Shown here piece after piece: positions 1-53,264 of a stretch of 64,000 nucleotides of DNA (position 1 is the first letter of the stretch; every line of letters begins with the position of its first letter). The position numbers were made by a program, and so were the translations under genes. This DNA is from an uncultured Candidatus Peribacteria bacterium. Its GTDB lineage: Bacteria; Patescibacteriota; Gracilibacteria; Absconditabacterales; Absconditicoccaceae. Below the pieces are notes generated by a model. That model was not told where the DNA came from. It made no database searches and saw nothing but the letters and a program-made list of their open reading frames with translations. The stretch is taken from positions 40,448 through 104,447 of the forward strand of contig CAYXZL010000003.1 in NCBI GenBank assembly GCA_964469925.1, given 5' to 3'.

Positions 1-807
1 GACAATCTTTTTGACGTCATCAAGGCTATACATTTCAGTAAATCTGATATCGATTTTTGCAACCGCTTTATCAGGGACGGCATTGATGGTATGTCCTCAT
101 TGTAACACATTGAGATTAACACTTGTTCATCGATGATCATCAGAAAAATAGACTTTCTGAGTATCTTGAAGTTTTTCTCTGAGGGTAATAAAGTAGTTAA
201 CAATATTGTGTAGCGCATTGATACCAAGCCATGGTCTAGAAGAGTGGCAGGCTTTACCTTGGGCCTCTACGGTAAACATGTAGATTCCCTTTTGTCCGAC
301 AACAATCTCATCGGTAGCACCCCCATCGGGTATCAGTACGATATTCGCCGTGTATCACATCTCGCTGATAATCGCGTTCACACCATCAAATCAGCCGACT
401 TCCTCGTCAGACGTAATCATAAGACAGATCTTTTTATCAACAAAGCGTTGATCCAAGATATCTTTCATGACTTGGATTATCAGGGCAACACCAGCCTTCA
501 TATCGCCAGCACCTCTAGCATAGAGTCTGCCCTCTTTTTCATAAGGAGAAAATTGTCCCTCTTGGGTTGGTGCAACAACATCAATATGACCGTTGAGAAT
601 GATGTCTGCATGAGTTCATTCGAAATTTTGTACCAGCAAAGAAGGTTTGTTATTGAAAACAACCTTTTCCAAGAATGCATGATCGTAGTGAGAAAAGTGT
701 TGAGCAATAGAGTCGATACATGCATGTAATTGATCAATATCAGACGATAGCGACGGGATTGCAATCAAATCACGAGTGAGAGAGACTATGGTGTGGGGGA
801 AGCTCAT
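1..807 (-). CDS. M20-family metallopeptidase (ArgE/DapE/acetylornithine deacetylase-like); C-terminus runs off the left edge
   Basis: Minus fragment 616..924 continues across in-frame TGA into NGHIDVV, GAGDMKAG and SDEEVGG motifs typical of M20 zinc peptidases. ATG at 805-807 lies 14 nt after the upstream stop. Confidence 0.8.
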
Positions 808-821
808 GGGGACAAAAGTAC

Positions 822-2162
822 TTAAAAAGGGATCTTGTGTGATTGTAAGAGTGGTATCATCGAGCTTGTCCAGGGGTGGCGAGTAATGGTGCTGATAAAA
901 GAGGAGAAATCGTGGGACCATCACTCTTTAGCGAGTTCCAAAAGCTTGACGGTAATTGGCTCAAGAAGTTTTTCATAATTACCGTTTGACGTCCAAGCCA
1001 GTTTGTCGTCGCTAGGCTGTAGACAAGAGGAGAGAGCATCAAAACTTAAGTCAAACGTATATGAATAGTCTTTTCTGTATCAACTGGAGTTGAAGATATG
1101 GATATTGTGAAGATTGGTGATCATAAGATACTGTACATATGAGTCAGAAACACCCTTTGCTAACACTCCCTTGTGTTCAAGGTAATAGGAAAACATCACG
1201 GAAATAAGGTCTGTACGTATCTCTTCAAAGGTGCTATAAGCAGCTCAGGCACGCTCGATGTATCCAGGATATTTACCGATAGTGTGACAGATCTCATGGA
1301 GGAGAACGTGGAGAAAATACCGCCTTTCAAGAAACGACGAAACATGCTGGTGTCACTCATCTGTGTAGACAATAGAGGACAATGGGATACTCATGGTATC
1401 AGTTTTGCGTTTGAGATTATTGAGAAAAACTTGTTTGATGCTACCATGTTCTGCAGCAAGTTGAGGGTTTTCTGGTCTGGACCATCAGGTGGCATTGAGT
1501 CTTTTAACTTCTCCAGACCAGTCAACAATATGGGACAAAACTGAGGTAACACGTGTTGGGCGATAGGATCCTGCTACTGAAAGAGATGCATGAAACGGCA
1601 CGATATGATCATGTACCGAACTAACAAAATCAACGAGTGACTGGTCAACCTGGGCAAAGACTGATGTAAAAAACCTTTTTTTGCCGTGTATGTGATCAGA
1701 TCTCGTCTCGATAGGGCCAAAGTTCCAAATATAGTCTATAGTAGGTTGAGAAAAAATATCTAGCCAGACTCACTCGAGTCTCAGTCGATCATTGTCACCA
1801 AGTGTTCTTTTGATTGCCTGTACAAAGTCTCTGAGATAGGAGGGTAGTTCCGAGTCAGCAAGAAGTTGGTCAAGCAATCTATCGATTGCGTCAAACTCTT
1901 CACGATACATGGTCACATAGGGTACGGATTGTATGCTAGAGTTTTCTCACTTTTTCATACAGCAAAACTGGTCATTGACAGCTGCTGGCAGTGTAGCAAT
2001 ATGCTCCATAAGCTGAGCATCAGCATAGGGATAGACACCACGGTCATCACCAATTTGAAGCTGGTAAATAGTTTCTATAAGAGCGTTGATATCCTGAATA
2101 ATGGCTATGATAGAGTTCATATAATCCTGTCTATAGGGGTAAACAAGTTTGGTACTGAGCAT
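822..2162 (-). CDS. HExxH zinc metallopeptidase, M49/DPP3-like (paralog 1), 446 aa
   Basis: Frame of ORF 1947..2219 stays open across 7 in-frame TGA down to TAA at 822-824. Contains LLHEICHTIG (HExxH) followed by FEEIRTD, which resembles the second metal-ligand motif of M49. N-terminus aligns with the gene at 5565..6854 (ETIYQLQIGDD vs DTIYWLQLGND). Confidence 0.6.
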
Positions 2163-2169
2163 AACGATA

Positions 2170-3777
2170 TTAGGTGTTTTTTGCCACGAGAATATTTCAC
2201 CAACCATAATAGGGTGCAACCATCTGTCATACTAATGCAAATGCAGCATCATCACGATCCTTTGCTGACATCTGCGGAAAGCATTGGTGAACCTCATTCG
2301 CCATGAAAGTAACAAGTAATGGAAAGTGCCTTTGCACCAATGCAGCAATCTTCACTGCCGTTTGCCCAACATTAGTTTTTTTATTTCCCCTTCTGGTAAG
2401 TCAGGTAAAGGGCTGTGTTCCTATGCCTCACGGAGACATCAATCTAAACTCCAAATCAACGGGGAGTTGAGATTTACCAAAACCTTCCCGTGTCTGTAGG
2501 GTAGGTATAGCTTGTTGTATACCACAATTGGGGGGTACTCTGTAGGACGAGTAGGGACCGACAGTGATGGGCTCAACACCATGTCCTGATTTACTATTGT
2601 TTGGTTTGAGATAGAAACACAAAGCAGAAGCAGTCATATTATCAACAACAGTAGTTCAAAACTGACGTACATAATGGTGTTTAGTACGTTCTCACTCTCT
2701 CATGATTCACAAGTCCTCCTTAGTCACCAAAAGACAGGTGTGCGGCCCAACCACCACATTGAGATTGTCAAGATCATCTCAATCAGGCGATTGTGCACAC
2801 AAAAATCTATAGACATACATGAGATCCCCTTGCGTACAGCCACACTGCAGCATATTAGCGACTAGGCGGTCCACATCATCTTGCTGCATTCTATTCCATA
2901 AGTAGTTGACCTTCACTTCTCCTACAGAAGTATTGTCAGGGTCGTAGACGTCGCAGTACCATGCACCATCACGAAAATGAAGGTTCATTTTCTGCAAAGC
3001 AAAGCTATAGGGAGTGATGGGCCGCGTATCACTAAGGGCTTGAGCATGACCTATCTTGTCAGGACCAGTGAGATCAAATGCATTCGTATCCATCACATAG
3101 ATAGGGGCGTTGCTTGCCAATACCTCTCTGATGCGTAGAAGAGAGTCGTAGGCCTCAGTGAGTCATCAATCAGTGATCTCTGAAGTATCCCGTTGCAGTA
3201 CACGCTGATAGGTCGTGAGCATATCCATAAAAAGGGTGAGGTACGCCATGCTTGCTTGAAACTCAAGGACTTGAAAAGGCTTTTCTGGATCAGAGCTAGC
3301 GAGTCAATCATAGGCAAAGGGTTGATTAAATCACAATGCTTGATTAGATACGAACGAACCAATGAGTGCTGGAGAAACAATCTTTTCTCTGCGACCAGTT
3401 TCAAAAGGAAAGGTACTTGTTCTCTGAGAAATACGCTCTTCAATAGCACTTCTAGTAGAGAAAAACCTTTTCTGACAAATCTGGTATGCTTCTTGTGCAG
3501 CAGAAACAAGGTTATTCCAAAAATTTTCAGATACAACGACAGGAGGGGTTGCTGTCAAAACTCCTCCAGGTTGACCATTTCACGGTATAGATGAGATAAT
3601 GTTATTTTCAAGGAGATCTCGGTTTATTGCTTTTTGGGCATCAGGACCCACCCTCATAAAAGCATAATCTGGCGATATGCGATCCAGAGAGTATGGTAAG
3701 GTGGGGGAGGAGGCGACTGCATGAAATGAGTCGTACGGTACGGGAAGATAATCGTTTCAAAGAGTAGAGTGTGTCAT
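2170..3777 (-). CDS. hypothetical protein, possible ATP-grasp amide ligase (glutathionylspermidine-synthase-like), 535 aa
   Basis: Fragments 3331..3558, 2779..3120 and 2428..2637 share one frame and join through TGA. ATG at 3775-3777, TAA at 2170-2172. Weak GspS/ATP-grasp-like strings are present (PFQVLEFQAS, VNYLWNRM, LKPNNSKSGHGV). The coding call is firm; the function is tentative. Confidence 0.55.
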
Positions 3778-3807
3778 AGTGATTGCTACAATATCATAAA
3801 ACAAATA

Positions 3808-5223
3808 TTAGTGTTGGGTAGACAGGCGACGTTCAATTGCTCACAAGGTCTCCTCAATAAGACTGGTAGCATATGCAACTTGCAGATCAAGTCAGTCGCC
3901 AATATTTTCTTCTATGTCTTCTGCAGAGGATCATTCTGGCCACGCATCAGGACCTCTAAACTCTGCAGTGAGGTTTCCTCAGGGTGCCTTGAGTACAACA
4001 TCACCATGTGACCTTTTGGGAGCAATGCCTTTGGGAAGTTTAGGAGAGTGGTTATGATAGTGTTCCCATACAGTTTCAATTTCTTCAAGACTAAAATACT
4101 GTTCAAGGACAACCTGTAGGAGTTCACGTCTCCACTCATCACCAGAAAGATCAACTCATTGATCAGCCATGTTCTCTACCATCTTATGGATATGGCATGC
4201 TAAGGAGGCATCAGGATCGTATCACATAACCATAGGCTCAACCACCCAGAGTAATGGGTGCAGAAGATGCTGTGCAGCCAGATCAGTAGATATAGGATCG
4301 CTGAGATTTCAGTCCTCATCTGGTTGCATAGAGGCATCTACGTTATTGCCAGGTTTTCGACCGTAGGTATCTTTCAAGTATAATGCACTTTTTCTACTCA
4401 GCCAGTATCTAAGCGATACAATCGCACCAAAAGCTATATGACGTTTTTCCGACTTGAGTAAGTCCACATAAAATTCCGTTCACTGTTCTTTTCTAGCATG
4501 TCATTCTCGATACAAAAGATCGAGAAAAAGGTTAAGCGTCTCAGTGATAGTAGCACCTGATGTATGGACGTGTAATCAGGTAGTCCCAACAGCTGATCAT
4601 AATCATCGTTTCTGAAGGATTGCTGGTTGAATATGATCTCTCACAAGCCAAAGAGACTCAGGACAAGGAGTCTCAGGACAATATGCGTGCCACTCACGAT
4701 TGATGGTATCAATATCTTGCTGAGAAAAATAGGATCACCGATGCACCAATGGATTGATAACGAGCGGGTAGTACCCATCCTCTTTTGCTGGCTCTGGTTG
4801 TACAAGATCAACGTCATTAACGCCTTTGATATCTAGGTGTTCTAGTTGCTGGGTCGTAAGACGTCATCACAATTCTCAAACTGCCCATGAAAGCACGCGG
4901 TGCAATGTGACCATATGATCTTGTGCAAGGTTTTGTGGTCCATAGTGTCCAACAACCTCCGGCATATAAGACAGTCCGTCAGGTATAATAACTCAGACAG
5001 GGTCGTTGAGGAGATCAAAAATCTCTGCACAAAAATCTCAATTAGATTTGGCTGAAATTTTAAATTTTTCCCTAAGAAAATTCTGGTTATCTGGGTCAGA
5101 CAAAAGTGCAACAAGTCTCGGCACCAATCTCGGTCATCCTGATGAGAGAAGGGGCAAATTCGTTGCAGCATCCACTGCTATGTACTCTCTTTCAGCACCG
5201 AAGGAAAGTGGTTTTCAATGCAT
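3808..5223 (-). CDS. GCS2-family carboxylate-amine ligase (YbdK/gamma-glutamyl-cysteine-ligase-2-like), 471 aa
   Basis: Frame open from ATG 5221-5223 to TAA 3808-3810 with many sense TGA. N-terminal SFGAEREYIAVD and internal GLHVHTS match the GCS2 signature strings (GxExEf, GxHVHvg). The listed ORF 4842..5171 is an off-frame artefact. Confidence 0.65.
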
Positions 5224-5253
5224 AATCTTAGTGTTTATCATCTCATAAAAAAA

Positions 5254-5272
5254 CCTCCCGAGCAGAGGGAGG
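5254..5272 (-). terminator. intrinsic terminator hairpin (CCTCCC-7 nt loop-GGGAGG) followed by a T-run on the minus strand
   Basis: Perfect 6-bp GC-rich stem. On the minus strand it is followed by TTTTTTTAT. It sits between the small ORF 5304..5393 and the ligase gene start at 5223. Confidence 0.5.
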
Positions 5273-5303
5273 TAGAAGTGCTATTTCAAGTTGTTAGTAG
5301 TGA

Positions 5304-5393
5304 CTATAGTTCTTGAAACACACCAAAGCTCCCTCTGTAGACAAAGAGTGTAATAATAGAGAGGAGAATAGTGTGGAACGAGATCTGTTTCAT
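5304..5393 (-). CDS. small hydrophobic peptide, 29 aa (MKQISFHTILLSIITLFVYRGSFGVFQEL)
   Basis: ATG to TAG ORF lying directly upstream of the hairpin at 5254..5272. No homology recognised and no obvious SD. Confidence 0.25.
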   Translation of the reverse strand: MKQISFHTILLSIITLFVYRGSFGVFQEL

Positions 5394-5564
5394 CAAAGAT
5401 TGTATCATAACAAACGTGATGACATATATATAATCTATGTCAATAATGCAAGTGATTTGTAGAAAAAGCCTACAATCTCTAAAAAGTGAGAGGAAAGGAC
5501 TTGATTATACAGGAACTTTCTGTAATTCACAATACCCAAGAGTCAACTTTACAGTCAATAGAAA

Positions 5565-6854
5565 ATGGTAATAGCGATAGGGAATTTGACAGATACTATA
5601 TACTGGCTGCAGCTAGGAAATGATAGTAATGCTCCTATCTATCCATGCTGAGACAAAAAAAACCTCTCTGCTTGGTTGGGAAGCGGAAATAGCCACGACA
5701 CCTACAGTATCCTGATTTCGAACTGACAAGGTGGTTACCTTACTGTACCCTATACGGAATCATATGCTACACAATTAGCAGCAGTTTTAAATGAAATAAA
5801 GAACAATGACCTTTTTGATCATGAAGACCTGAAATGGCTAAGGGCATCGTTAGTATGAGCTCTAAAAAACAATAATCGACGCCAGCTTGCAATCGATTGG
5901 CTCAATCACTACTGACCCAACAATTCTCATGCCGCGAGTGAGTATGTAGTAAGTTTTGGTCCCATTGAAGCATATGAAAATGACTTTTGATTTAGGATAT
6001 TCTCCTATGTTCTCCTAAAATTATCATGAGAGTTGCAAGACAAGTTCACAGAGTACTTAGCACAAACACAGAATTTTTTAGAAACAATCTGACTGGGGGA
6101 CCTAACTGTCAGATCAAGACTCTATATTGGTGATGCGGTCAATATGTCCTGACAACTAGGGAAATTTCAAGCATCAGGCTGGTCTAGACCGACGAGCACT
6201 ACGTTAACCCAAGAGTACGGTAGTGTACAACAGCTATTCCTCAATAACATGAGACTGAAAACAAACAGCATGTATCGACCTAGCTATAACGTTGCCCGAT
6301 GAGAGGAAACGTCAGAGAAGGATTTTTTTGAGTTATTTTTGTTACACGTAGGGATGCACGAAGCCAGTCATCCAATCAAAGTACCATGATATGTGGAGAG
6401 TTTTGGTGAAAAAAACAATAATCTCTTCCTGACATTTGAAGAAATAAAAACTGATGTAATGGTTTTGGCTCGCGTTGCACATCTTGAAAAGTTGTGACTG
6501 GTTTCATGAGGGACAACAAAAAGACTACTAAAGGTAGTAGTAACGAATAATTTGCATATGTCTTATGTCTGCGAGAGATCATGATGAAAAAAGAGAAGAG
6601 AATATGACAAGACTTTTGATTATTTCTTATGGAGATTGCAGAATCATATGGGAATAGATGAGTGAACTATGATCCATCTCGCATGAGAAGATGCTGTTAT
6701 CATGGAAGAGCTCCAAGCTATGGCACAAGAAATGGCAGGACTCATGAGACAATCTGATTATGTTGAATTTGAAAGGTTTTTCGGGGAACTACAACTAGCA
6801 GAAAGAAAAAAGGATCTAGTATGAAAACTACTGCTGAAGAATGTCGCATATTAA
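5565..6854 (+). CDS. HExxH zinc metallopeptidase, M49/DPP3-like (paralog 2), 429 aa
   Basis: Frame 0 is open from ATG 5565 to TAA 6852-6854 through many TGA. Contains LLHVGMHEASHP (HExxH) and FEEIKTD. Collinear with the gene at 822..2162. Confidence 0.6.
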
Positions 6855-7014
6855 AGAGCGGTACCTCTCTTAAAAGTTCGTGATAACAGGACACCAACCA
6901 AAGGGACTGAGATATATGCTGTATCAGTAGAGTTGTAAACTAGTATAGCATAAGCACTTGCAATGGCAGTTGTTTTTTGTAGAGTGCTACTGTTTTAGTA
7001 CGGTACAACAAGAA

Positions 7015-7290
7015 ATGTCTCAATTTCCTGCTTTACAAGAAGCTCTCAATACACTTTCAGGTGTATTGTTGGCAGTCAAAGACCAACAAGGAATGAAAAA
7101 TCTCCTAGACGATCTGTTGACACCACAAGAACTCACAGAAATGGCAGAAAGGATCAATATAGTGAGATTGTTAAAGCAAGAAAAAACCCAAAGAGACATA
7201 GCACAAGAGTTGGGGATATCAGTAACTACAGTGAATAGAGGAGCAAGAATGCTAAAGTACGGAACGGGTTGATTTAGAGACCACATCTAA
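7015..7290 (+). CDS. TrpR/YerC-YecD family DNA-binding protein, 91 aa
   Basis: LLTPQELTEMAERINIVRLLKQEKTQRDIAQELGISVTTVNRGARMLKYG is the YerC/YecD (Trp-repressor-like) HTH pattern. Reads through TGA at 7270 to TAA at 7288-7290. Confidence 0.75.
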
Positions 7291-7333
7291 TTTTTTTTGC
7301 AGAACAGTTTTAATATATTAATACAGCAGTATA

Positions 7334-8266
7334 ATGGAATGAGAAGATTTAGATAGGCAAAGAGTGTGACTGGAGCTAGAGTGCAGGTTAATGAATGATT
7401 CATGAGAAGTTCTGCTACAGTTGGAGTATCAGGAGATTCCTGATGCAATCAGAACAATAGCTCTAACACAAAATGAACTAGGGAAAGCATTAAATCAAGG
7501 TCATATAGCGATATCGCCAGAGTTTAATCGTGATCAGTTTGAGTTGGCAACATATGGCACAACTACATTTACGTCGGCTCTCGATATGCTTCTAAACTTC
7601 TGTGGTCAATTAGCAGAGTGTTTAAGTGAACAGCATTGAGTGACAATAGACCTATCTGTTGTACCGCCAAGGCAAGCTGTCCTAGAGTATACGAGCTACA
7701 AGCCGTATTATCCAACACTAGCAGAAAATGCTAGAAGACAAGCACAAGAGACAGATCCAGAAACCTACGGTCCAAGCTGATTATTGGCATTACGTTTATT
7801 TGATATCACATCAATGCAGTTCAATATCGATGATCCAGACTTATGACTGTATAGGTCACAAGCAAGGAGAGTCAACCAGGCAGTATGATCAAGAGATTTC
7901 TCACAATTATGAACCTCCGAAAGGCTGGAGATATTTGAAAAAATCGTATGATTAGTGGCAGCGTCTGGTATGATACAGCCAGGGATAGTGCCTCCATTAT
8001 GGAAAGGCTGAGAAAGGGGAGATTGTCATACAAATGCAGAGTTGCTACAATACTTCCTGGAGGGACCAACAACACAACATCTTATAGAGATTAAGCCATC
8101 AAATGACTTGGCTAATCGTCAGGGGCACTATACAGAAATAAAATTTACTGACAGCGGAGTTGTTTCGCCAAAAAAATTTGAGCCTCATGATCTCGTGAGG
8201 GCGATACAGCGAGCAGCAGAAAAGAACTTTTGACTTATAAAAAGTTCTTATGAAAGCAGAGGCTAG
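7334..8266 (+). CDS. GCS2-like carboxylate-amine ligase homolog (short form), 310 aa
   Basis: ATG 7334 precedes RVGLELECRLMN (compare YbdK TLGIELEMQVVN). QFELAT and GHYTEIKFTD (compare GTVEVRVMD) follow. Fragments 7421..7639 and 8042..8233 are in the same frame. TAG at 8264-8266. Confidence 0.5.
8222..8248 (-). terminator. 10-bp perfect hairpin (AAGAACTTTT-7 nt-AAAAGTTCTT), probable terminator of hsp20
   Basis: Lies 35 nt downstream of the hsp20 stop on the minus strand and is followed there by CTTTTCT. It overlaps the last 15 codons of the convergent gene 7334..8266. Confidence 0.45.
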
Positions 8267-8660: not shown

Positions 8661-9257
8661 TTAGGGATGGGGTGGTCAGGAATGTAGAGAAATAGCTATT
8701 TCAACGATCATAAGTACCTTGGCCTTTACCTCTTCAGGTTTTTTGACCCAAGTAAGATTAATCTCCCCAGATCAGCCAACTTGGTCTCACTCAGCAAAAA
8801 ACTCTAAATTTCCAATATCAAAGACGCTAAACCAAAAGCCCGCCTTATCAACCGTAGCAGTTTTGATCTTTTCTGTTTGTAGTGTCCTAATACGCCTTTT
8901 GAGGATACCCGTCTGATTATAAGAAATCAACTCTTCCGGGGTGACAATAGTAAAGTCCAAGATATAATCTAAATAGACCTTACCTACACGATAGATCATG
9001 ACAAGAAAAATGACCACACTCAAAGGAACTCACACAATATACAAAAATGAGTCTATAGCAGAATCATTAAGTAAACTACTGAGCCACAAAACTACTCCAA
9101 TCAAAGCAAAGTAGAAAATTGCAGGTAGCATGATGTGTATAATAGAGAAAAGAAAGGTTCTCTCGATGAGGAGTACCTTATCAACACCAAACTTTTGCAC
9201 AAAGTAATCATATCTTTCTTGTTTGAGTCACAGATCGAAAGTAGAAAAAAGTGCCAT
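8661..9257 (-). CDS. membrane protein with YdbS/YdbT-like bacterial PH domain, 198 aa
   Basis: Two N-terminal hydrophobic helices are followed by YNQTGILKRRIRTLQTEKIKTATVDKAGFWFSVFDIGNLEF (bPH_2-like). Extends fragment 8787..9023 in both directions across TGA. Confidence 0.6.
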
Positions 9258-10685: not shown

Positions 10686-10771
10686 GCCTGGGTGGCGAAA
10701 CTGGTAGACGCGTCAGACTCAAAATCTGATGACCTTTGGTTGTGAGGGTTCGAGTCCCTCCCCAGGCACCA
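10686..10771 (+). tRNA. tRNA-Leu (anticodon CAA), type II with long variable arm, CCA encoded
   Basis: Acceptor GCCTGGG/CCCAGGC. Anticodon stem TCAGA/TCTGA with loop CTCAAAA. T arm GAGGG-TTCGAGT-CCCTC. 3-prime ACCA. Confidence 0.9.
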
Positions 10772-10851: not shown

Positions 10852-11964
10852 CTACGTATGGCGTGCTGTTCTTTTCTTAGAATGTATGGTTTTGGGAGAG
10901 GTATTGATGCGTCTAATAGAGAAAAAAAGATTAACAAGCACCAAAAGAACAATCACACTGAGGGCTGCCCATACGGGAAACATAAAAAATGAAGCTGACT
11001 GCACCAGTGTTTCTAAATCTTCGGAGACTCAAGTGACTCATCCAATAGGATGATGTGTTAGTGCTAGATCGGCAAAGAAGTATCACTTATATCGAGGGAA
11101 AGCATCAAGGGAGAAGGTGATATTTTCTTGGTGTTGATTCATGATAATTTTGCTTTGCTTATAGACTCACACAACATATCACAGTGTATTTTTTATGGTG
11201 AGAGTAGCATCTACGTTTTCATCCAAATCTCAGTGATTATTGAGTCATACAACTATGGCAACCGATCACATGGGAGTTCTATGAGCATAGAGGAGAGGAT
11301 TGTTACTGATGTTTTCTCAACGAGGAACGTTGAGCGGCTCTATGATACTAAGTGTCGAGTTTGTCGGTCATTCTACCATAACGTCAATAAAATGCCCTTT
11401 GCGTACAACAACATTAAACTGGCCTGTCGAAGTATCAGAATATCAGGGATTGAGAGAAAATACTAAACATCAATGGTAGATACCCACAGCTGATGGAGGC
11501 AATGAGAGAGTGGCATGGGTAGTAATAGTTTCATTGGGACCAATAGAAAAAGTATCGGCATATCCACTGACGTACTGTCAAAACCTATCAGTAAATTCGT
11601 TGCTCTTACAGGATTTTTTCTGAAGAGAGTCTACAGTATATGCACCATCAACAAATCACATCACAACCGTGGCGGGTTTGTCATTGTTGTTATACAAAGA
11701 AAGACAGATGTCCAAAGGCTCGCCAGGTTTGACACTCGTAGTTAGACGGTCTTCTTGGTTTGCTGTATTATTCGGATTACAAAACTTCAGTTGAACATTA
11801 GTTAAGTCAGCAGTTATACCCATTGGATCATCAATGGGTGCGGGTGGCTGTACGGTGGAGGTTGTATCGGCTAAAGCTATTCAAGAGAAACAAAAAAACG
11901 CTAAGGAAAACAATCACAATAAGACGGAAGAAGGAAATAGCAAAGCTAGACGAAGTTTGATCAT
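10852..11964 (-). CDS. secreted, C-terminally membrane-anchored surface protein, CscA-like (DUF916/DUF3324-like architecture), paralog 4 of 4, 370 aa
   Basis: Signal peptide, conserved Cys pair, then GFVDG, KSCKSNEFTDRFGQYV, GCL, FNVVVRKGHFIDV and RYKG motifs and a C-terminal TM helix. Open frame across about 20 TGA to TAG at 10852-10854. Confidence 0.65.
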
Positions 11965-12036
11965 GCCACATAGCAAAATAAACGACTAAACCCACGTATA
12001 ATGATCACGAAAACAAATACAAGAAACAGTAGTTTC

Positions 12037-13377
12037 TTACTGGTTTGCTGGTCCTAGAGAGTCGACACTATTGTGCATATTCTGTCATCACTGTAGCTGG
12101 TTTTGGCCGAGAAAAGTTGGTTGATTTCAGCCTCAGGCACTTTGTGGCTGATGAGAATCCGGAGGCACTTGTGAGTCAGCAAATGACTGTTGAAATCAAG
12201 ATGGACCAAAAGCTCACGCAGTATTTCAAGGAAACATCATGTTCTGAGGGAAAGAGTTCATTCAGTTTTTTTGCCTTTTTTTATGTCTCCAGATGATAAC
12301 CACAAAGAGAACAAAGATGATGGCGATCAGCCATCGCCCAATACTGACACGTTTAGCTGTAGGCGTGTAACGGACAGGTTCAAGTTTTATTGTCTGTTTT
12401 TGTTTCATATCTTCCGTTACAAACTCGGACTCGAAATTATAGCTTGGTGTATGGTCAACACTAGCCGAGATACTCATCAATCACTTGTACCACGGAAAGC
12501 TTGGTATTTCAAACTGAACGTCTTGTTTACCTCAGGCTTCTACTCTCATTTCTTTTGTTTGCTGCATGATTTCTCTTCAAAGTATTCAGTGCAGACGGAT
12601 TGTGGTTGTGGTTTGCTGATCGACTTGTCCAGTATTGTTAAGTCATAAAGAAAGTAAAAGTTTACCCGAATCAACGGGGCGAAGAAAGAAGGGAGGGGCA
12701 CTAAGGAGGTTGGTTGTCTGGTCAAAGCCACTTGGTACACCAACACTAAAACCAGCCTCAAGTTGTCCATCGACAATTGCATCAATAAACTTTGCTTTAC
12801 GCAAGACAATATCAAACAATCATGTTGGTTTTTGTTGTGCGTTGGGAACAAATACTTCCACTGCTAAACATCACAAAAGATGCCCCACATAGTCATCAGG
12901 CAAACGGAGAGTCGCCTGTTGTTTAACACTCGAACGTGGCGGTATCGTCACTAACTTATCGTACTTGCTAACATACTGACCAAACTTATCAACAAACTCA
13001 TTACTCTTGCATGATCTCTTGCGCGTCGAATCGATAGTAATAGCTCCGTCTACAAAGTGAGTTTTGACTGCGATAGGACTCTTACTAGAATTGGTGAGGT
13101 TATAACATAGAGAGCGTGCAGCTCATTTTTCTAGTGTATAAGTAATGCCGTTGGTATTGCTCTCCACATCATCTGCACCTAAATCACAAAACTCTATATC
13201 GACAAAACCAAGAAGACTAACACCAGTATCATTGTCCTTGGGATTCTCTTCTTGTCCGTATCCAATGAGGGGAGAAAACGCTAGTATGCAGACAAGCATA
13301 GTGCGTATAAATATGGTGTTCACTGACTGGAGCTGCATAAGAAAGGCGACGTAGAGTAAAGGTGCGAAATCTATCAT
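12037..13377 (-). CDS. CscA-like surface protein paralog 3 of 4, 446 aa, with Q/P/G-rich cytoplasmic tail
   Basis: Fragments 13123..13377 and 12262..12480 are in the same frame. Motifs HFVDG, RSCKSNEFVDKFGQYV, FDIVLRKAKFIDA and PWYKG, then a TM helix and a low-complexity tail ending at TAA 12037-12039. Confidence 0.65.
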
Positions 13378-14720
13378 CAGATAGGAGTATTGGGATCCTG
13401 GAAACCACTAACTCATCATGGGGTCATGGGTGGGGTGTTTCATAATTGCGAGTTAGTTAGATTGTTGTTGATGGGTTGATTAACAATCGGTTGTGCAGAT
13501 TGAGCCATCTGAGGATTAGTTTGGATCGACAGGTTAGTAGGTTGTATGGTGTTAGGGGGGGGTTGCATCATCTGATTAGCCACATTAGGAAGAAATCATC
13601 AGGGGTACATTCAAGGCTGTTGCATACGGTATTGCTGAGCATACATATTTTGATACATCTGCTGCATCTGTTCCATCATGGCCTGTCTTTTTTTCCTATG
13701 TCTCTTTATCAAGAGAATCATCGTCCTCCGAAGTGCAACCAAGACCAACAATGCAGCCACTATCCACCAAGGGAAGATGAAAATAGAGGTTGCAAAATGC
13801 ACGCTCTGCGTTTTTCTCATCTCAGGAGTTATTTGTTCACTATCAAAAAGAAAGTTCGGCGTATAGTCAGCGGAAACACTGATGTCAAAACTCCCCTTGT
13901 ACCACGGTAGTACAGCAGAAAAGGCAGCGATAGTGCTTTCTTTTCATTGAACATATTTGATTTGCGGAGTGAACTCGATCGGCTTGCCGAAAAGCGGTTT
14001 GATCTCACCCTTCAAGAGTACGTCTTGCGCTACATTGCCTTTATTGTCCAACTGCAAAGAAACGACGATTTCATCATTGGCTGTTTTTTTGACGTGCAGT
14101 TGCTTATTGTTAGAGATGCTTCACTCATCTTCAGGTTTAGAGACTTCAAGACCAATCACTAAATCTCACTTGACAAAAACATCAATAAATCTCGTACGCC
14201 CAACGACCACATCAAACATTCATCATGCCTGTTTATCAATTACATTGTACATCAAACATCCCATAACCTGCCCTACATATCATAGGGGAAAAGAAAGTTT
14301 GGATGTGACTTTTTGGCTTTCTCAAGCTCATAGCGACAGAGTGTCGCTATTGGGTTGGACATACTGACCAAAAAGATCTTTTTTGGCAGCAGAGTGACAC
14401 ACCCTAGAACCATTAGAGAGTCATCCGTCAACAAAATTAACTTTCACGTCTAAGGGCTCACTGTAGGTATTAGTGACCTGGTAACAGAGGTTTACAGAGC
14501 TGTTTTCGTTGAGTTCCAAATAGATTTTTTTATCTTTCTTCGACCCAGTAGTATCATCACATTCGAAAAAATCTACTTTGATATATTGTAAAAACGTCCC
14601 ATATTCAGCATGGCTTACAAGAGGCCTAAAAAAGACGAGTGAAGCAATAACTGATAACAAAAAAAGTTGTGCCGACCTCTGCCGATAATGCGTAGAAGAA
14701 TATGGTTTATGTTTCTTCAT
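13371..14720 (-). CDS. CscA-like surface protein paralog 2 of 4, 449 aa, with Q/P/M/N-rich tail
   Basis: Fragments 14421..14801 and 13611..13820 are in the same frame. Motifs NFVDG, FDVVVGRTRFIDV and PWYKG, then a TM helix. TAG at 13371-13373 overlaps the next gene start. Start taken at the internal MKKHK (14720). Confidence 0.65.
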
Positions 14721-15855
14721 GGGCTTTTGTCTTGATAAAGTTCTTTCTGCTGTGGGTTCTGGTCTTTCTTCATTTGAGATAGTGAAACCACGCATGTACA
14801 TTATATAAGATAATAATCAATAAAGCAAAAAAATAGATCATCCGTGGAAATGAAAAGAATTGTTTGTGAAAAGGGAAACGTAATCGGGGCTGTCAAGTCA
14901 AGTTTTTGAGGGATAAATCGAGCGAGGAATCGTTGAGATAGAGAGAATAACGTCAGAACGATAAAAGGTTGATAGGCAGTTGGTGGCTAATAACAACAGA
15001 GGATTGCGGGGGAAGATCGTAGTCACCAGAAAAGTGTACTATTGTGCCAAAAGAAGACAGGGCTCATGAGCTTACAAACACAAAAGAAGAGTTTCAGGTA
15101 TTGATGACCATATATTGTAAAAGAAAAGAGCGGGGATTTAGTTTTGAAAGATGATAAAAGGAGTTCTTCAAAAGATTTTTCGCAGGCAAATTGTGAGGAA
15201 AAAGCATTGGATTGATAACAGATGTGTTGGTATCAAAAATAAGAGAGAATGGTCTAACCCTAACAAGATTGACGGTAAATAATCACATACGTTGTTTGGG
15301 ACGGTGAGGTGGCACATATTCTCAGGCACGAATACAGCCCTCCACGTGTTCTATGTCTGCAAAGGTTTGAGGCTGTATATGAAAAAAAAACTGCTGGTAA
15401 CTATGCCCACTGACCAACACTAAAGCAGTGTTTCAAGAAGCAAGTAAACTATTATGGTTGAAAATGGAGTAGTCATGGTCAAAGCCGGCTGCGTGTGAGC
15501 ATTGTCACGGCAAGAGGTCTCATCAGTCTTGGGAGGCTCCGCTACTGTAATAACTGCCCAATGAGAGCAATACAAGCACTGGAGCCTGATCCTTGTTGTT
15601 TATTCACAAACAGAGTATCATAGGAAGGCCTGCTTGATAGGTTTTGCGATAAGGTGCAACAATTCCGTACTGATCCTTGTTGTTACAGAAGTCGATCGAT
15701 ACATGGGAAAAGTCAGCAAGATTGCCCGTATAGGTAGGAGAGGCATAGTATGATGCAGCTCAAGAATCAACAAAAGACGCTCGAAGAGGGAGAGAGTAAA
15801 ATAAACCAAGTACAGTGAAAACCAAGCCACAAACCCTGGATATATTATTTCTCAT
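14707..15855 (-). CDS. CscA-like surface protein paralog 1 of 4 (most divergent), 382 aa
   Basis: Signal peptide MRNNISRVCGLVFTVLGLFYSLPLRA, a Cys-containing N-terminal domain and a C-terminal TM helix (MIYFFALLIIILY). Open to TAA 14707-14709, overlapping the next start by 14 nt. Confidence 0.55.
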
Positions 15856-15924
15856 AGAGAAAAACCACCAATTATCTTCTAAAGCCCAAACCAGGATATA
15901 TAAAAGCAAAAAAGAATGCAAAAG

Positions 15925-15948
15925 AAAGGAGGCTCTAACGCCTCCTTT
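15925..15948 (-). terminator. intrinsic terminator after the WxL-like gene
   Basis: AAAGGAGGC-6 nt-GCCTCCTTT perfect 9-bp stem, followed on the minus strand by CTTTTGCATTCTTTTTTGCTTTT. Confidence 0.7.
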
Positions 15949-15991
15949 CGTATACAATTGCGTAACTTTTGATACATAGATTGTCTACAAC

Positions 15992-17870: not shown

Positions 17871-18055
17871 GGGTTAGCGTATTGGCTAAAAGCATGAACT
17901 CGGCACTGAAATTGTAAGTTGCATGCAATAGTATTATAGATCAAAAATACAATCTGTCAAATAACTAGGGGCGATCTTTTTTGTCTTTCGCTGCTTTTAT
18001 GACTATACTTAGTGACACCAAGAGGTGTTTTGTACTTAATGCATGGTGATGTGTG

Positions 18056-21000
18056 ATGGCGGTAGGACCCAAAAGTAACGCTAACAGCAACCAAAACGAT
18101 CAATACCAAGAACAGAGCATGAGATTAGATTCTGAGGTTTTTTCTATACTACAAAGGTCCTACATAGACTTTCTAAAAAAGGAAAAACTTGATCGGACAA
18201 CAATGAAGAGACACCAAGATTACGTAGAAAAGTTTTTTGAATATATAAAAAAGTGATGAAACAAGGAATTGTTGAGCCTAGCAAATAAAAAAACGCTCAA
18301 CGCCTTTTTTTCTGCAATAGAAGAAAGATGAATAAAGGCAGTAGACTTGCTGGGAGACAACAACGCTAGTATCTCAAAACGTATAAAACCAGCCAATAGT
18401 GAAAAAGTTGGTTTAGAGAGAATGCTGAAAAAAATCTATGAAGAAACGGCTGATGTGACAGTTTGAGACGATAATGCTTTCAAAAAATTCGCTGTAAAAC
18501 ATTGACTAAACTTCAAGGAGGCTACCGGTCTCTGTAGTATCGATAAAAACTCAAACATACAATCGATAGCATCATTAAAAAAAGAACGAAGAAAATTCGC
18601 CAGCTGATTGCCAGACAAAGTGAGACAAAGAGTAAAAAAAAACGTATTCAAGCATACAGCTACAATGTTCTATGACCAGACTGAAAAAATGGCTGCCACA
18701 GCTCTATTGCTGAAATATCGTAGGGTAATAAAAAGCCAAAACTCCAAGGAGTTGCTAGAGGATTTTGATAGAGAGTTTCCTATACCTTTGCCAATTTACA
18801 ATAAAAACTCCTATGGCTGAGACGAATATGAGCAAACCAACAGTCTGCCAGAAATTAGGTGAAGATGGGCTAACTTTCTAAACGAAAGTGCTAGGAATAA
18901 TGCCGATACCATAGTACAAGAAATCAGCGACATAAGAATAACAAATAGTGACGTAGTTGAGGCGTACAAGGACTTCGGATGAGCAGAAAATGACGAGTTT
19001 GACGGTCTAGATAGCAAGAACGTGAATAAATGGTCGACTCAAACCAGGATCATGTTCAATAAGCTGGTGGCAGAGCAGTTTATAGCAGACTATGAAAAGA
19101 GTAAAGATTTTGTCGACCAAGGTCTTAAGACAGTCGCTTCAGCTATTGCTGACACACCACCGACCTTTAATCAGTTGTTCAAAAAGTACAAAACAAGCAG
19201 AGAGGAGTTGATAAGCTTTGATCCTTCTCTGGAAGAAAAACTAAAGAACAAAGATCAGTGTATTGAAGATTTGCAAAAAGAAAGGGATAGTGAGCAGGCA
19301 GATCATAACAAAAACTATGCCAAACTAATTAATGAAGAAAGGCAAAAACAGCAAGAGGATCTGATGCAAGCTTTTTTTGTTCAAGTGAGACAAGATGATG
19401 ATGAGTTAGGCAGAATCCTAGAAATAGCTTATGATAATAACTTCAACTTGGCAAAATTAGACCACAAGCAACAACAATACCTCATCCGCCAGTTGTGTAG
19501 CATCACATTAGATGATGTGAAAGTACAAGAAATAGTAGTGAAGATGGGTATTGATCCAGACTGATTAGAAAAATTCAGTACAGAATTATTTGATCTAAAC
19601 AGCAATGCCATAACTATCCCGATGGGCGATCAAAGCATACCGATCGAATTTACAAAAAAAGGTTTTTTGCCAACCAGCATACACAAAAGCAACGTGGACC
19701 TAGAAAAAATGAAAGAACGAAGACATTTGGGTTTCAATCTATCTATCAAGGTAACTCCTGAAAACGAAAAATACCTCCAGTCACTATACAGAAAGTCACC
19801 CTTTCTGTTTAGAAAATTCGGTACAAAGGAATCATCACCCACTATCAGCGAGTGATACAAGGTTAGAATAAGCAGAAACGGTGAGTCGTATGTGGGGTAT
19901 CTGTCATTGAGATGAAAGGAGATAGAAAATGAAAAAGATCAGACCAAAATGGAGCGACATTTGTATAGTAAGCCAGTCAATCAATATGAAACGGAGAGGG
20001 AACTGGCCTACGGTAAGCCCATACCAGATGATGAGGCTCATGAGCGAGACGTGGATATCCTAGAAAAAACCGTACATCTCAACGGAGATGCTATAGGAGG
20101 GTTAATATTGGGTCACATAGCAGGCGAGGCTACAAAAACTAAAGATTTGAATACAGATACAAAGGATGTGTCAAACCGAGCAGAAGACTGAAGTTTTGCA
20201 AACACATATCGTGATACCTTAGAGCAGCAAGCACTTGAAGAAGATAAGTGGGCAGTTGAACAAAAAAACAAATTGGAGTCCGAAGAGGATGCGAAAAGAA
20301 ATTTAGAAAAAGCACGAAACGAAATCCAGCCACGCAACAAAAAGGTAGCATTGGAAAAGGGAACGAGTTTGCGAGTACAGGAGTGAGAGTCCGAGATTTT
20401 TCAGCCCTTCATCGATCAAGGTTTTGGGGAGTGATGATACTGGCATTGTTTTGAGATAACGGACATAGATACAAGCAAAAACACAATTACATTTAGAAGG
20501 CATGGTTGAGAACAGAAACATAGTCAGGAGTGAACAATAACGATGCCTCTGAAGCCAGAAACGTTTGAAAAGTTCCGCAGTAGCTACGGGATAAATCTCT
20601 ATAAGACCCCTAAAGTAAAAGCTAGAGAAGAATGATTTTTTGGTCAAATAAGGTATCTGGAGGAGGCGGCCATCCCCAATGTGTCTGATAATCTTAAGGT
20701 CATTGGAGGACAAGTAAAGTTTAATGGAAGCAGGTTTTCGACGTCTCATAGTGGAGAAAGCCTTGAAACGCAGTATTTCTGAGCGATGGCAGACAATCCT
20801 GAAACAGGGAAACCAACTATCATAACATTCAAAGTCGAGCCATGATCCGACGGCAAAATCAAAGTGTCTGGCTGAGAGTTGGTGAAAAGATGAGACAGGG
20901 GAGAGATACTCCAACGCTACAAATATAATAAAGATATGGATTATACAAGCTTTCTCCTGTTTATAGGAGAGCACAAGCTTAGCCCGTTGACCGATGATCA

Positions 21001-23308
21001 AATCAATGCCTTCAAATTACAACAAAAAGAAGCATATGGTGCAATTGATGATGGTGATCTATCGAACAAAAAACTAGAGTTTTTTTCCTTGTCAGATTTT
21101 GGTTGATTTTTTAAGTGACGATATAGTAAGTTTACTGATAAGCGAAAGGAGTATAATGAAGAGAGATTAGATATGTTGACCGATTTGATGGTGACCGATC
21201 GAAGGTTATATCAGAAAATGTCTAATACGCTGTGATTCTGGTGAAATTGGAGAAGTACGTGGTCCAAGATAGATTATGACGTGAGATTGGAAAAGGCTGG
21301 GAAAATTATGGCGAAGATTACTGCACGGAGAGATAGATACGCCAAAGAGCCAGATAGAAGCCCTGTGGCAGCAGAGATACTCAAGATGGTGTTAAAATGA
21401 CCCTTTCCAAACACGGAACGCCTTTACCAAGTAGCGGGTGCATTCCTCTATATGATGGAGAAGGCAGGCGGTATGTATGTGAGAGCGTTTGCCCCATATG
21501 CATGACAGGGCTTGCGGGTCAGAGCACTGTTGTGAGACGCACACCGATCGAAGTACAAAAGACAATTGGCAGATCTAGAAGCAAAACTAAAGGCCGATCC
21601 CACTAATGAAGATTTACGTGCACAGATACAGCAGTCAGAGGCATTATATTTGAATATAGCGATTGATTGAGCAGATGAGGTCCTAAAGTTCAGATTCTGA
21701 ATAGACTTCGCCGATGCTATCATGCCAGCCTATCAGTGATCGTTGGGTACTGAAAAAATAAACTCAACAGCAAATGCACTAACAGGGATGGCACAATTTT
21801 GATATATCTTTGACCAAAAATTTAGAGCAGAACTCCAAAAAGGACAAACCGCTAAAGCTTTGGCCTGACTCAAAGCGGCTGCCTCACTAGCAACCCGTAG
21901 CTATGAAGTAGAGAAAATAAAAGGTGGGATTCTGTTGGTGCTACTGTCGGGAGTAAATATGTATGGAGGAGATAGTGAATCAATCAACTTTCTGGTGCAG
22001 TTTTCGAGAAAGATATGATTTTTGCCAGGTATGCGAATGGAAGACTTCAATTGTCAGACCAAAACCGCTAGACTCCTCCACATGATCACAGGAGACTTTT
22101 ATGTAGAGACTGGGTATAAAATAGAGAATTTTGCGGCAAGCAATTATGGCCTATGAATGAAAAATACGAAATGATGATATACGGCTGCATTTATGAGGCG
22201 GTGGAATACTGCGAAGCTAGGAGACACGAAAAGTCGTGGCAGTAACATAACAGATTTTTTGGATATGAAAAGCTTGGCATGAGACCATAGTTTGCTGTGA
22301 GGCACCATAAATGGTAGACAGCTATCCTACGAGGATAGGAAATTGGTACAAGAACTGATAGGCTTTAGTTTCAACGACTCAACCAGCACCATTACTGACC
22401 TGAACAACAAAGAGTTCTATAGAAATCCGATGACGGTACCTAAGACGGTCGCACAACAGTTCATGAATTTTAGGGGCACAGACTTTGCTGGTGATGATAA
22501 TCAAAAAGAAAGTGCTCAAATATTTTGGCGTTCATTTGCGGATGCAATACCAGTCGATACGATCAATGATGATCAGTTCAAGACAACAACACGCTTTATT
22601 ATGAAAAAGTTCGCGGACACAATTGGGTCCAAGTACTTCACAGGAAGTAACGAAAACGACCTTATCAGAGCACTAGGTGTAGTAAGGAACATCGGAAGAG
22701 ACAAGGACATAGCAAACAAGAGGGCTGAGATAGATTTTCTCCTCCATGCTATCATTACAATGAACTTACAATCAGCCTATCAAGGTATTCCGAACGAAAT
22801 TGATGCGGTCGGTGAAAAATTCAAAAGATTTCTTGAAAATAATATTGCCAATATTGACGGTGATGTGATAGAAGAAACATTTTGACCAAACAAGAGGGAT
22901 ATGTTTGATAATCCGTGAGATTATGTCGCATGACTCGGCTTTGACAAAAGAGAAATTGACAAAAAGGTGAAGGAAAGGACAGATGCGGGTGAGACCAAAC
23001 CCTTGTTTAATCAGAGATTGCGAAATATCCATAGAGGTATGATGACCAGATGACAGGGATTGGACTTCGAGTATCAAAAAATCATGAACAAATACGATGT
23101 TTCGTGAAAAGAAAAAGAAACTCAAGAAACGGCAAAAACGAAAGTGCAGGCATTAGGAGAAAAGAAAAAGTTCGTAGCAATCAAAAACCCAGATGGATAC
23201 GATCAAGACAACAAGAGTTCTCCGTGAGATCCAAATCCATCTGCAGGCATTGGAACAGGACAATACGATTATGACGAACCAGCTTGGGTATGACAGCAAG
23301 AATACTAA
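18056..23308 (+). CDS. giant hypothetical protein, about 1750 aa, K/E/D-rich
   Basis: Six listed fragments (18053, 18608, 19022, 19622, 19949, 22343) share frame 2. I read 20189-22343 codon by codon and found only TGA interruptions. TAA at 23306-23308. Start ambiguous (ATG 18056, GTG 18053 or ATG 17999). Confidence 0.75.
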
Positions 23309-48603: not shown

Positions 48604-48909
48604 TTATATTCAATAATGCTTTTTTAGGTCTGACTTTCGAGAGTCGGGAAGTACTGTTAGAAAATCAGTCCCATAAAGTTCTAATGCAATATCAGCAACA
48701 AGGAAAGAGAGTTCATAGAGGGGCGATGATGTATCCTGAGGAAGATCTCGTCATCATCCCACACTCGTGAGAAACTGGTCCTCTCTAGAATCTTTCGGGC
48801 TTGAGGACAATCGCAGCATCAAACGATCTCTACATCAAAAGTCTCAGGGAATATCGCTACTGAGCTGAGCAAGTCTGTCGAGATACCCTTGCTGGTTAAG
48901 GCTAGTCAT
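48604..48909 (-). CDS. hypothetical protein, 101 aa, start overlapping the giant-ORF stop (ATGACTAG)
   Basis: ATG at 48907-48909 overlaps TAG 48902-48904 of the upstream gene. Frame open with sense TGA to TAA near 48604. Composition only moderately protein-like. The alternative is a 5-prime leader of the VIT gene. Confidence 0.3.
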
Positions 48910-52984: not shown

Positions 52985-53264
52985 CGAGTCAATCGAGTAA
53001 ACGATTTGCATCATCTTCATCATGAATACGCTCCTGTTCCTCTTGTACGTGGATCTGCTTGATCGTATCGAGTTGCTGCTGCAATGCGTGTTGCATTTTT
53101 TTATTAGCAAGACGGCCAACAGCTGCATTGATCGGCTTCAATACAATATCGAGCATACTGTCAGGGAGATCGTAGTTTTCTACCACGATCAAAAGTGCAT
53201 CTGCACTGTCCCAATACGGTTGCAGCTTAGTCAAAACACGTATAAGTAAGTCCTTTTTGTTCAT
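52962..53264 (-). CDS. hypothetical protein, 100 aa, 3-prime end overlapping the giant ORF start by 23 nt
   Basis: ORF 52989..53264 extends 8 codons past TGA to TAG at 52962-52964. Helical, acidic C-terminus. Confidence 0.5.

Follow-up and report, generated by a model that had tools for sequence, protein, structure and literature searches.

The window analyzed here is a stretch of 64,000 nucleotides (nt) from an uncultured Candidatus Peribacteria bacterium placed by GTDB in the Absconditicoccaceae (contig CAYXZL010000003.1, positions 40,448 to 104,447), and its first 8,266 nt hold seven genes, g1 to g7, in which candidate amide ligases lie among metal-dependent peptidases. On the minus strand, g4, g3, g2, and g1 follow one another as a tightly spaced operon for a glutamine synthetase (GS)-fold ligase candidate, a second ligase-like protein, an M49-like peptidase, and an M20 enzyme. 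Divergently, on the plus strand, run g5 (a second M49-like peptidase), g6 (a helix-turn-helix protein), and g7 (a GCS2/YbdK-like protein). An earlier note on this DNA, made from the sequence alone, had read the seven genes as an amidoligase-peptidase island. The explanation that we favor, to which we give not quite an even chance, is that a lineage-restricted operon of Gracilibacteria/Absconditabacteria that read UGA as Gly makes and hydrolyzes a small amide-linked compound under metabolite-type feedback.

Genetic code, peptidases, and regulator

The standard bacterial code turns the region into a patchwork of short open reading frames (ORFs), and the summed length of the window's ORFs of at least 100 amino acids (aa) rises from 12,623 aa under code 11 to 45,560 aa under code 4/25. 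The island was compared with four other loci, L001 (the closest relative), L004, L005, and L006. At 205 in-frame UGA sites of g1 to g7 standing opposite a sense codon of an ortholog, the codon specified Gly at 103 sites and Trp at a single one, which shows directly that UGA is read as Gly (code 25), a reassignment reported solely from Gracilibacteria and Absconditabacteria (PMC8629427). The sole tRNA gene in the 64-kb window is that of a tRNA-Leu(CAA) (10686-10771, plus strand), and no UGA-reading tRNA-Gly(UCA) was found there. With code 25, all seven genes are recovered with ATG starts at the coordinates of the earlier note, and the minus-strand gaps of 30 nt (g4/g3), 7 nt (g3/g2), and 14 nt (g2/g1) bear out its description of a seven-gene layout with 7- to 30-nt spacers.

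A second reassignment, which goes beyond the earlier note, is suggested by the CGA and CGG codons. In g1 to g7 and their orthologs in L001, L004, and L005, these codons align with UGG or with one another and hardly ever with canonical Arg codons. Reassignment of CGA/CGG to Trp has been reported for Absconditabacteria and some Gracilibacteria (PMC8629427), and the alignments make it probable for the island genes, where it affects 15 of 123 nominal Arg residues of g1 to g7 (about 12%), which may be Trp; the catalytic Arg residues used in the motif argument below are encoded by AGA, AGG, or CGT. The public copies of g4 (P0001), g3 (P0005), and g7 (P0006; P numbers denote public protein records) are translated with UGA as Trp, which puts 11 to 20 false Trp residues in each protein, and they are 96 to 97% "identical" to the window proteins. 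This mistranslation of public records hampers homology detection and probably also hampered structure prediction here.

The last gene of the operon, g1 (1..807, minus strand), is cut by the window edge, leaving the N-terminal 269 aa. Its matches to PF01546 (6.4e-18; 65.8 bits, cutoff 24.6), PF07687 (1.8e-18; 66.9 bits, cutoff 21), and TIGR01910 (E, 1.8e-44) sustain the M20 label given to it earlier and make an ArgE/DapE-type M20 metallo-deacylase/dipeptidase a solid prediction. Full-length orthologs lie beside g4 homologs in L004 (52% identical) and L005 (56% identical). Such full-length orthologs score 172 to 189 bits with TIGR01910, below its cutoff of 217.6, and on every M20 equivalog model (among them DapE, ArgE, LysK, and PepV) they fell far short of the cutoff.

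The genes g2 (822..2162, minus strand; 446 aa) and g5 (5565..6854, plus strand, divergent; about 429 to 430 aa) are predicted to encode short-form zinc peptidases like those of family M49 (dipeptidyl peptidase III, DPP III). As the earlier note had claimed, they are paralogs (29% identity; E, 2e-39). The PDB entries 5zum (1.4e-10) and 6eom (8e-7) were matched by g2, and a profile of g2, g5, and their orthologs matched 6eom at 5.3e-13 and 5zum at 7.3e-13; neither protein matched the Pfam M49 model PF03571 at an E value of ≤1. The zinc motifs, HEICH and EEIRTD in g2 and HEASH and EEIKTD in g5, are invariant across the family alignment and align with HEISH/EECKAD and HELMH/EEAKAD of the solved enzymes, the classical HExxGH hexapeptide being absent. 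This HExxH-plus-EExK/RxD zinc site is shared with the short DPP III enzymes of Caldithrix abyssi (6eom) and Corallococcus (5zum), and the pentapeptide HExxH subgroup of DPP III has been demonstrated to be active (PMC5805324; PMC9820243). Whereas those enzymes have about 540 to 566 aa, g2 and g5 lack roughly the first 100 residues, with the alignment beginning at residue ~107 to 158 of the solved enzymes, with the pair of paralogs flanking a ligase operon. Assignment of g2 and g5 as paralogs of the short HExxH-type M49/DPP III group is thus predicted on solid grounds. In L001, the g2 ortholog is 80% identical and the g5 ortholog, in the same divergent position, is 60% identical.

The helix-turn-helix protein g6 (7015..7290, plus strand) matched PF01371 (4.6e-23; 81.5 bits, cutoff 27), in line with the TrpR/YerC-like designation of the earlier note. 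It scored above the cutoff of the YerC/YecD model TIGR02531 (48.9 bits, cutoff 42.2) and under that of the TrpR equivalog TIGR01321 (56.4 bits, cutoff 67.25), and it is therefore YerC-like rather than TrpR proper. In L001 (82% identical) and in L006, the g6 ortholog immediately precedes a g7-like gene.

The ligase-like proteins g4, g7, and g3

The first gene of the operon, g4 (3808..5223, minus strand; 471 aa), and the plus-strand gene g7 (7334..8266; 310 aa) had both been called GCS2-like. A GCS2/YbdK reference was built from Escherichia coli YbdK and eight diverse plasmid homologs (nine sequences, which makes it a test of moderate strength), and hhalign scores were calibrated with column-shuffled queries. 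Against this reference, the g7 family scored 35.1 (P, 5e-4; z, 7.7) and the g4 family 28.4 (P, 0.009; z, 4.6), and in both cases 0 of 120 shuffles reached the score. As controls, the same families were aligned to a GSP_synth reference built from E. coli YgiC and YjfC and seven plasmid homologs, with scores of 20.8 for g4 (z, 2.2; 1 of 40 shuffles) and 16.9 for g7 (z, 0.6; 11 of 40 shuffles); the M20 and M49 proteins gave no signal. The g7-GCS2 alignment is collinear over Q6-275/T9-244. When segments were aligned independently, three of four from g4 fell at the correct collinear GCS2 region, namely, those with the GxExE strand (T10-31; P, 0.0017), HxH (T131-157; P, 0.011), and TxExRxxD (T235-255; P, 0.038), and the second motif (DGLSYMPE) found no independent match. 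Two g7 segments fell at correct collinear GCS2 regions (P, 0.001 and 0.01), and a third was collinear at a P of 0.063. With HMMER (filters off, 500 shuffled decoys per sequence), none of the 500 decoys reached the GCS2 score of the window g4 or of two g7 members, and 2 of 500 reached that of the third g7 member.

The motifs invariant in the four g4 homologs are G9-x-E11-x-E13, D82GLxYMxE89, T214TxxH218xH220xSG, R261, R404SHxDxVLKAP, and LTxE421xR423xxD426, and all GS-fold metal/phosphate-binding residues (ExE, E...E, HxH, R, and ExR) are retained across homologs that are 33 to 74% identical. In g7, ExE and E...E are kept, HxH is replaced by QxN or QxS, and both Arg residues are replaced by Lys. 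Lacking the HxH and both Arg residues of the GCS2 active site, g7 may not be a ligase, and it may bind rather than ligate. Both proteins are collinear with the GxExE, E...E, HxH, SxR, and WDxRP...TxExRxxD elements of GCS2/YbdK (PF04107, TIGR02050); they differ from that family in that g4 is ~100 aa longer, with insertions, and in that both lie below every curated threshold. It is plausible from these comparisons that g4 is a divergent GS-fold carboxylate-amine ligase candidate with the full catalytic motif set and that g7 belongs to the same GCS2 superfamily, nearest YbdK.

The second operon gene, g3 (2170..3777, minus strand), encodes a 535-aa orphan protein. Its hhalign score was 25.2 with GSP_synth (P, 0.029; z, 3.9) and 16.5 with GCS2 as the control (z, 0.3; 41 of 120 shuffles). 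In a relaxed alignment, g3 is collinear with GSP_synth over Q80-474/T38-377, nearly the whole domain, and its strings pair with the hallmark strings RxD...LExNADTP, KLYPxE, EPxWKxxxSNK, VxKPxxGREG, and GIRE, the Arg of RxD being Ala or Val in the g3 family. Four g3 segments fall in collinear order on GSP_synth, each of them weakly (P, 0.09 to 0.32). Compared with the GSP_synth proteins (E. coli GspS, YgiC, and YjfC), g3 is ~150 aa longer, and unlike the plasmid references it lacks an amidase domain or a DUF1190-type neighbor. We tentatively assign g3 as a GspS/YgiC-like (ATP-grasp-related) amide ligase.

Several results count against these ligase assignments. The proteins g3, g4, and g7 and their relatives gave no usable match in Pfam, NCBIfam, or PHROGs and no match in the PDB, whether searched as single sequences or as family profiles; the g3 family profile found nothing in the PDB even at an E value of ≤10. 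Among curated GCS2 models there was no match for g4, and for g7 there was only TIGR02050 in one of three family members (E, 0.043; 13 bits, cutoff 176). In the HMMER check against GCS2, three of the four g4 members were not significant. Against GSP_synth, 4 of 500 decoys reached the score of P0010, a distant g3 relative, and 14 of 500 that of g3, two of the four members being unscored. The hhalign score of g3 is marginal (P, 0.029), and 1 of 100 shuffles reached it. AlphaFold models had a mean predicted local distance difference test (pLDDT) score of 43.8 for the g4 family (P0001-P0004) and 32.3 for the g3 family (P0010, P0005, and P0009); the low confidence is due to shallow alignments. Neither sequence comparison nor hhalign of the families detected a relationship between g4 and g7, and by this absence of similarity we ruled out that they are paralogous ligases or recent duplicates. 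Support for ligase folds in g3, g4, and g7 is accordingly modest and comes solely from profile-profile statistics. What stands of the GCS2-like label for g4 and g7 is their z scores and collinear segments, with nothing added by Pfam, NCBIfam, or the PDB, and the GspS/ATP-grasp-like label of g3 is carried by its z score, weakly and with no curated match.

The three families are rare. Among 5.8e9 proteins, g4 had four matches, one being g4 itself; g7 found itself and two relatives. An exhaustive HMMER search of 1.84e9 representatives with g3 gave three matches, i.e., g3 itself, one fragment, and P0010, the neighborhood of which was uninformative, and L001 yielded two further g3 relatives, one ortholog and one paralog. 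Each ligase-like family occurs in three to four lineages, all on UGA-recoded contigs except for one g3 relative. Scans of 185,579 GTDB species representatives with a protein pattern and with a UGA-tolerant DNA pattern for RSHxD[VI]VLKAP turned up no g4 homolog, a scan of Joint Genome Institute metagenome contigs for g4 gave two chance matches only, and viral contigs held nothing for g3 or g4. Standard annotation misses these families, in part because the wrong code is applied in public records (UGA as Trp and CGA/CGG as Arg).

Conserved gene units and the leader of the g4 operon

The earlier note had treated a neighborhood unique to this genome as telling against its reading, and the neighborhood is not unique. 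In L001, where the g4 ortholog is 74% identical, g7, g6, g5, g4, g3, and g2 stand in the same order up to the contig end, which falls inside g2, and synteny spans the whole region, including the flanking genes for an Hsp20-like protein, a membrane protein, a signal peptidase, and a single-stranded-DNA-binding protein. At third codon positions, identity between the window and L001 is only 42 to 57%, a near-saturated synonymous divergence, which indicates that the gene linkage has been held by selection and does not reflect recent common ancestry. Between g6 and g5, L001 carries a three-gene insertion (4216-8196) that encodes a PepD dipeptidase (TIGR01893, 435 bits, above cutoff), a GATase1/C26-like protein (PF00117, 1.4e-9), and a 526-aa g3 paralog, further members of the cluster that fit its amide-bond theme.

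This insertion bears on a specific version of our proposal, a low-molecular-weight thiol or gamma-glutamyl peptide cycle. In such a cycle, g4 would be a gamma-glutamyl-cysteine-type ligase, g3 an analogue of a glutathione or glutathionyl-amine synthetase, the M20 enzyme (with PepD in L001) a Cys-Gly-type dipeptidase, and the GATase1/C26-like protein of L001 a gamma-glutamyl hydrolase. Cys-Gly is a substrate of PepD-type and M20 enzymes, and gamma-glutamyl amides are hydrolyzed by those of family C26. Besides the inserted PepD and GATase1/C26-like genes, the matches of g4 and g7 to GCS2/YbdK, a family that includes glutamate-cysteine ligases and whose plasmid homologs are so annotated, and the position of g3 nearest the glutathionylspermidine synthase family fit a thiol cycle. 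However, the substrates of GCS2/YbdK and GSP_synth proteins are diverse, and RefSeq names YgiC a peptide-spermidine ligase; moreover, no thiol-dependent enzyme was seen near the cluster, and L004 and L005 carry g4 plus M20 only. We regard a thiol cycle as improbable.

The loci L004 and L005 are far more distant (GC contents of 51% and 32%) and are UGA recoded, too. In both, a g4-like gene (46% and 33% identical, respectively) is immediately followed by a g1-like M20 gene, with no M49 gene nearby. L006 (positions 1-2069; 33% GC, UGA recoded) carries, in a row, genes for a YerC-like protein, a g7-like protein (39% identical), and an AstE/AspA-family deacylase. Two stable units emerge. The first is g4 plus M20, which were shown to be adjacent in two lineages and in the same operon here, as is probably the case in L001; the second is the YerC-like gene plus g7, found in three lineages. 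In both, a predicted GS-fold protein stands beside a metal-dependent amide hydrolase. The genes g3, g2, and g5 were shown to be accessory genes present here and in the closest relative. The duplicated ligase-plus-M49 pairing that the earlier note had singled out has to be given up, since g4 and g7 share no similarity and g5 is not the partner kept with g7 in relatives. Some 6 kb from the g4 plus M20 pair, L004 also carries a GH3-family gene (1680-3413, minus strand; PF03321/PF23571/PF23572), apparently split by the gene caller, of the acyl-acid amido synthetase type, an ATP-dependent amide-forming type unusual in bacteria.

The lack of M49 genes near the pair in L004 and L005 also bears on whether the island is mainly one of peptide scavenging, in which the M49 enzymes would cut dipeptides from host-derived oligopeptides, the M20 enzyme would split the dipeptides, and g3, g4, and g7 would be ligases of other molecules or not be ligases at all. 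Only the three peptidases are solidly assigned, the models of the g3 and g4 families have low pLDDT, enzymes of known structure related to g2 and g5 are active as DPP III (PMC5805324; PMC9820243), and, according to published accounts, candidate phyla radiation (CPR) bacteria rely on hosts for building blocks. Scavenging does not account for g4-like genes directly beside M20 genes where M49 genes are not nearby, nor for the retention by g4 of every GS-fold metal/phosphate motif among its diverged homologs, and the negative controls show that the profile signals are family specific. Peptide scavenging as the main role has, in our judgment, a small chance of being the right explanation.

The ligase-hydrolase pairs further recall the ligase/deacylase systems of amino acid and polyamine metabolism, such as LysX-LysK, ArgE, DapE, and PuuA-PuuD. 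In these systems, too, an ATP-dependent enzyme that forms amides is paired with an amide hydrolase, either an M20 enzyme or another that depends on a metal or on Cys. By analogy, g4 might add an acyl or aminoacyl group to an amine, the molecule might be transformed elsewhere, and the ArgE/DapE-type M20 enzyme might then remove the group. Such protection and deprotection would fit the scoring of g1-type proteins, which is best on ArgE/DapE/LysK-type deacylase models, and the ligase-deacylase pair as the conserved core, a theme repeated by the g7-like and AstE/AspA deacylase genes of L006. In contrast to the known systems, the cluster here is without intermediate-transforming enzymes or a carrier protein: no oxidoreductase, aminotransferase, or kinase gene lies between or beside the ligase and the deacylase in any of the loci, and no carrier-protein gene was seen. 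In addition, published accounts credit these bacteria with few biosynthetic pathways. We think a protecting-group role quite unlikely.

The g4 operon is preceded by a conserved leader, another feature that goes beyond the earlier note. The 341-nt spacer between g4 and g5 aligns to L001 at 83% identity; the 215 nt proximal to g4 (5246..5460, minus strand; L001 9760-9980) are 83% identical over about 214 nt, and the distal spacer is 63% identical. The third codon positions of the flanking genes, in comparison, are identical at the 42 to 57% given above. A promoter-like site, TTGTGA-17-TATAAT (5504..5532, minus strand; 10 of 12 consensus matches), identified by consensus match only, marks the putative start of the leader transcript. 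A terminator scan found that the leader ends in a 7-bp GC-rich hairpin followed by a run of seven T's (T7; 5273-5247), 23 nt before the g4 ATG.

Within the leader, a purine block, seg2 (AGAGGGAG, 5329-5336), can pair without a mismatch with the terminator 5' arm, seg3 (5264-5271), or alternatively pairs with an upstream CU-rich segment, seg1 (5358-5368); seg3 in turn pairs with seg4 (5254-5259), which precedes the T7 run (5247-5253; all on the minus strand). In the window, L001, and L004, the mutually exclusive pairings 1:2, 2:3, and 3:4 have energies of -12 to -20 kcal/mol. If these pairings form, sequestration of seg2 by seg1 would lead to termination, and pairing of seg2 with the terminator 5' arm would allow readthrough. 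In its length, its conservation, its intrinsic terminator next to the start codon, and its alternative antiterminator, the leader resembles riboswitches and attenuators, and we interpret it as a candidate of this kind; the operon would then respond to a metabolite, as biosynthetic operons do. Unlike known riboswitches, it belongs to none of 4,227 Rfam families (no match at E values of ≤5 to 10), and a known RNA family was ruled out on this ground. No second copy of the leader was found in the window or the compared loci. A terminator-like CTTCCC...GAGAGG with T7 lies antisense within g5 (5656-5683, minus strand), where the score of the leader profile was nonsignificant (E, 3.9 to 5.9).

The case for an RNA switch is weakened by the remaining loci. 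The leader of L004 (~290 nt, ~8970-9190) is otherwise dissimilar to that of the window, a leave-one-out search for sequence homology was not significant (E, 3.8), and we claim for it a shared architecture only; in L005 the leader is missing, and g4 is preceded by a gap of just 30 nt. Of 38 predicted pairs in the three leader sequences, 7 show changes at both positions and many are broken, and two to three sequences are too few for covariation to tell a structured RNA from a region densely bound by protein. The stretch could instead be a dense divergent promoter/operator, for example for g6, or a small-protein gene. It lies between the divergent g4 and g5 genes and has promoter-like sites on both strands, and its predicted fold is only modestly more stable than those of shuffled sequences (minimum free energy z, -2.5); a 29-codon ORF (5304-5393, minus strand) is uninterrupted in the window as well as in L001. 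Conservation, however, peaks in the 215 nt next to g4 and is lowest near the promoter (63%), the hairpin and T7 run end the leader close to the g4 start codon, and the three alternative pairings recur in the window, L001, and L004. The ORF was rejected as a coding gene, as it has 1 synonymous and 9 nonsynonymous differences, with changes distributed 7/4/6 over the codon positions. An operator or small-protein gene is in our view somewhat unlikely, and we retain the riboswitch or attenuator as the interpretation of the leader.

Elsewhere in the window, three to four consecutive paralogs of 370 to 476 aa (10852-15984, minus strand) have N-terminal signal-like and C-terminal hydrophobic segments, a low-complexity Q/P/N-rich tail, and the common string FVDG...C.S..F.D.FGQYV, and they are probably a surface-protein family. 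Very large code 25 ORFs lie at 17969-23308 (plus strand, 1,779 aa), 48902-53179 (minus strand, 1,425 aa), and 53309-57340 (plus strand, 1,343 aa).

A proposed amide pathway in UGA-recoded bacteria

In the pathway that we propose, g4 would activate a carboxylate as an acyl-phosphate with ATP and Mg and join it to an amine, and the GspS/YgiC-like g3 would add a second amide bond, as GshB or GspS does after GshA in thiol-peptide pathways. The product could be an amino acid, peptide, or amine conjugate. The M20 enzyme would remove or recycle the amide bond, and the two M49 DPP III-like enzymes would either cut dipeptides from imported oligopeptides, supplying substrate, or degrade the product. A second module, conserved on its own, would consist of g6 and the catalytically degenerate g7, and a regulatory or sensory function is more likely for it than that of another ligase. 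The coupling of ligases to peptidases put forward in the earlier note survives in part: the recurrence of the linkage in relatives supports joint action of ligase and peptidase on a common small product, whereas g7 has lost the HxH and both Arg residues of the active site and the ligase folds are modestly supported.

We regard the cluster as a variant of the predicted amidoligase-peptidase gene neighborhoods reportedly described by Iyer, Abhiman, Burroughs, and Aravind (Mol BioSyst, 2009; cited in PMC3511204). Those neighborhoods combine GS-like (COOH-NH2 ligase) and ATP-grasp-type ligases with peptidases or deacylases, which implies that a peptide-like metabolite or tag is made and trimmed. 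Here, by comparison, the ligases are too divergent for curated models, and the partners are M20 and two M49 enzymes. A carrier or tag peptide was not seen, nor were components of the transglutaminase-like, Ntn, or alpha-E kinds; the cluster is confined to UGA-recoded lineages and is preceded by a conserved attenuator-like leader. New, then, would be the near-orphan families, their occurrence in bacteria with an altered code, and an undescribed leader.

A bolder reading joins the leader and the g6-g7 module. The leader would represent a new riboswitch class that senses the product or substrate of an orphan two-ligase pathway found only in CPR bacteria that read UGA as Gly, and the catalytically degenerate g7 would be the ligand-sensing partner of g6 as a repressor. 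The analogy is with Bacillus, in which feedback-inhibited glutamine synthetase controls TnrA and GlnR. We would not expect this reading to hold as a whole; if it did, it would amount to an undescribed small-molecule pathway with sensors at both the RNA and the protein level, in organisms thought to be nearly without biosynthesis.

Gracilibacteria and Absconditabacteria are uncultured or barely cultured, host dependent, and minimal in their metabolism. An operon that is conserved, apparently under feedback control, and devoted to ATP-consuming amide synthesis would suggest that there is a metabolite these cells must make themselves, for which a thiol, an osmolyte, a signaling peptide, and a cell envelope component are candidates. 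The leader offers an experimental handle, as its ligand would reveal the chemistry of the pathway without culturing of the organism.

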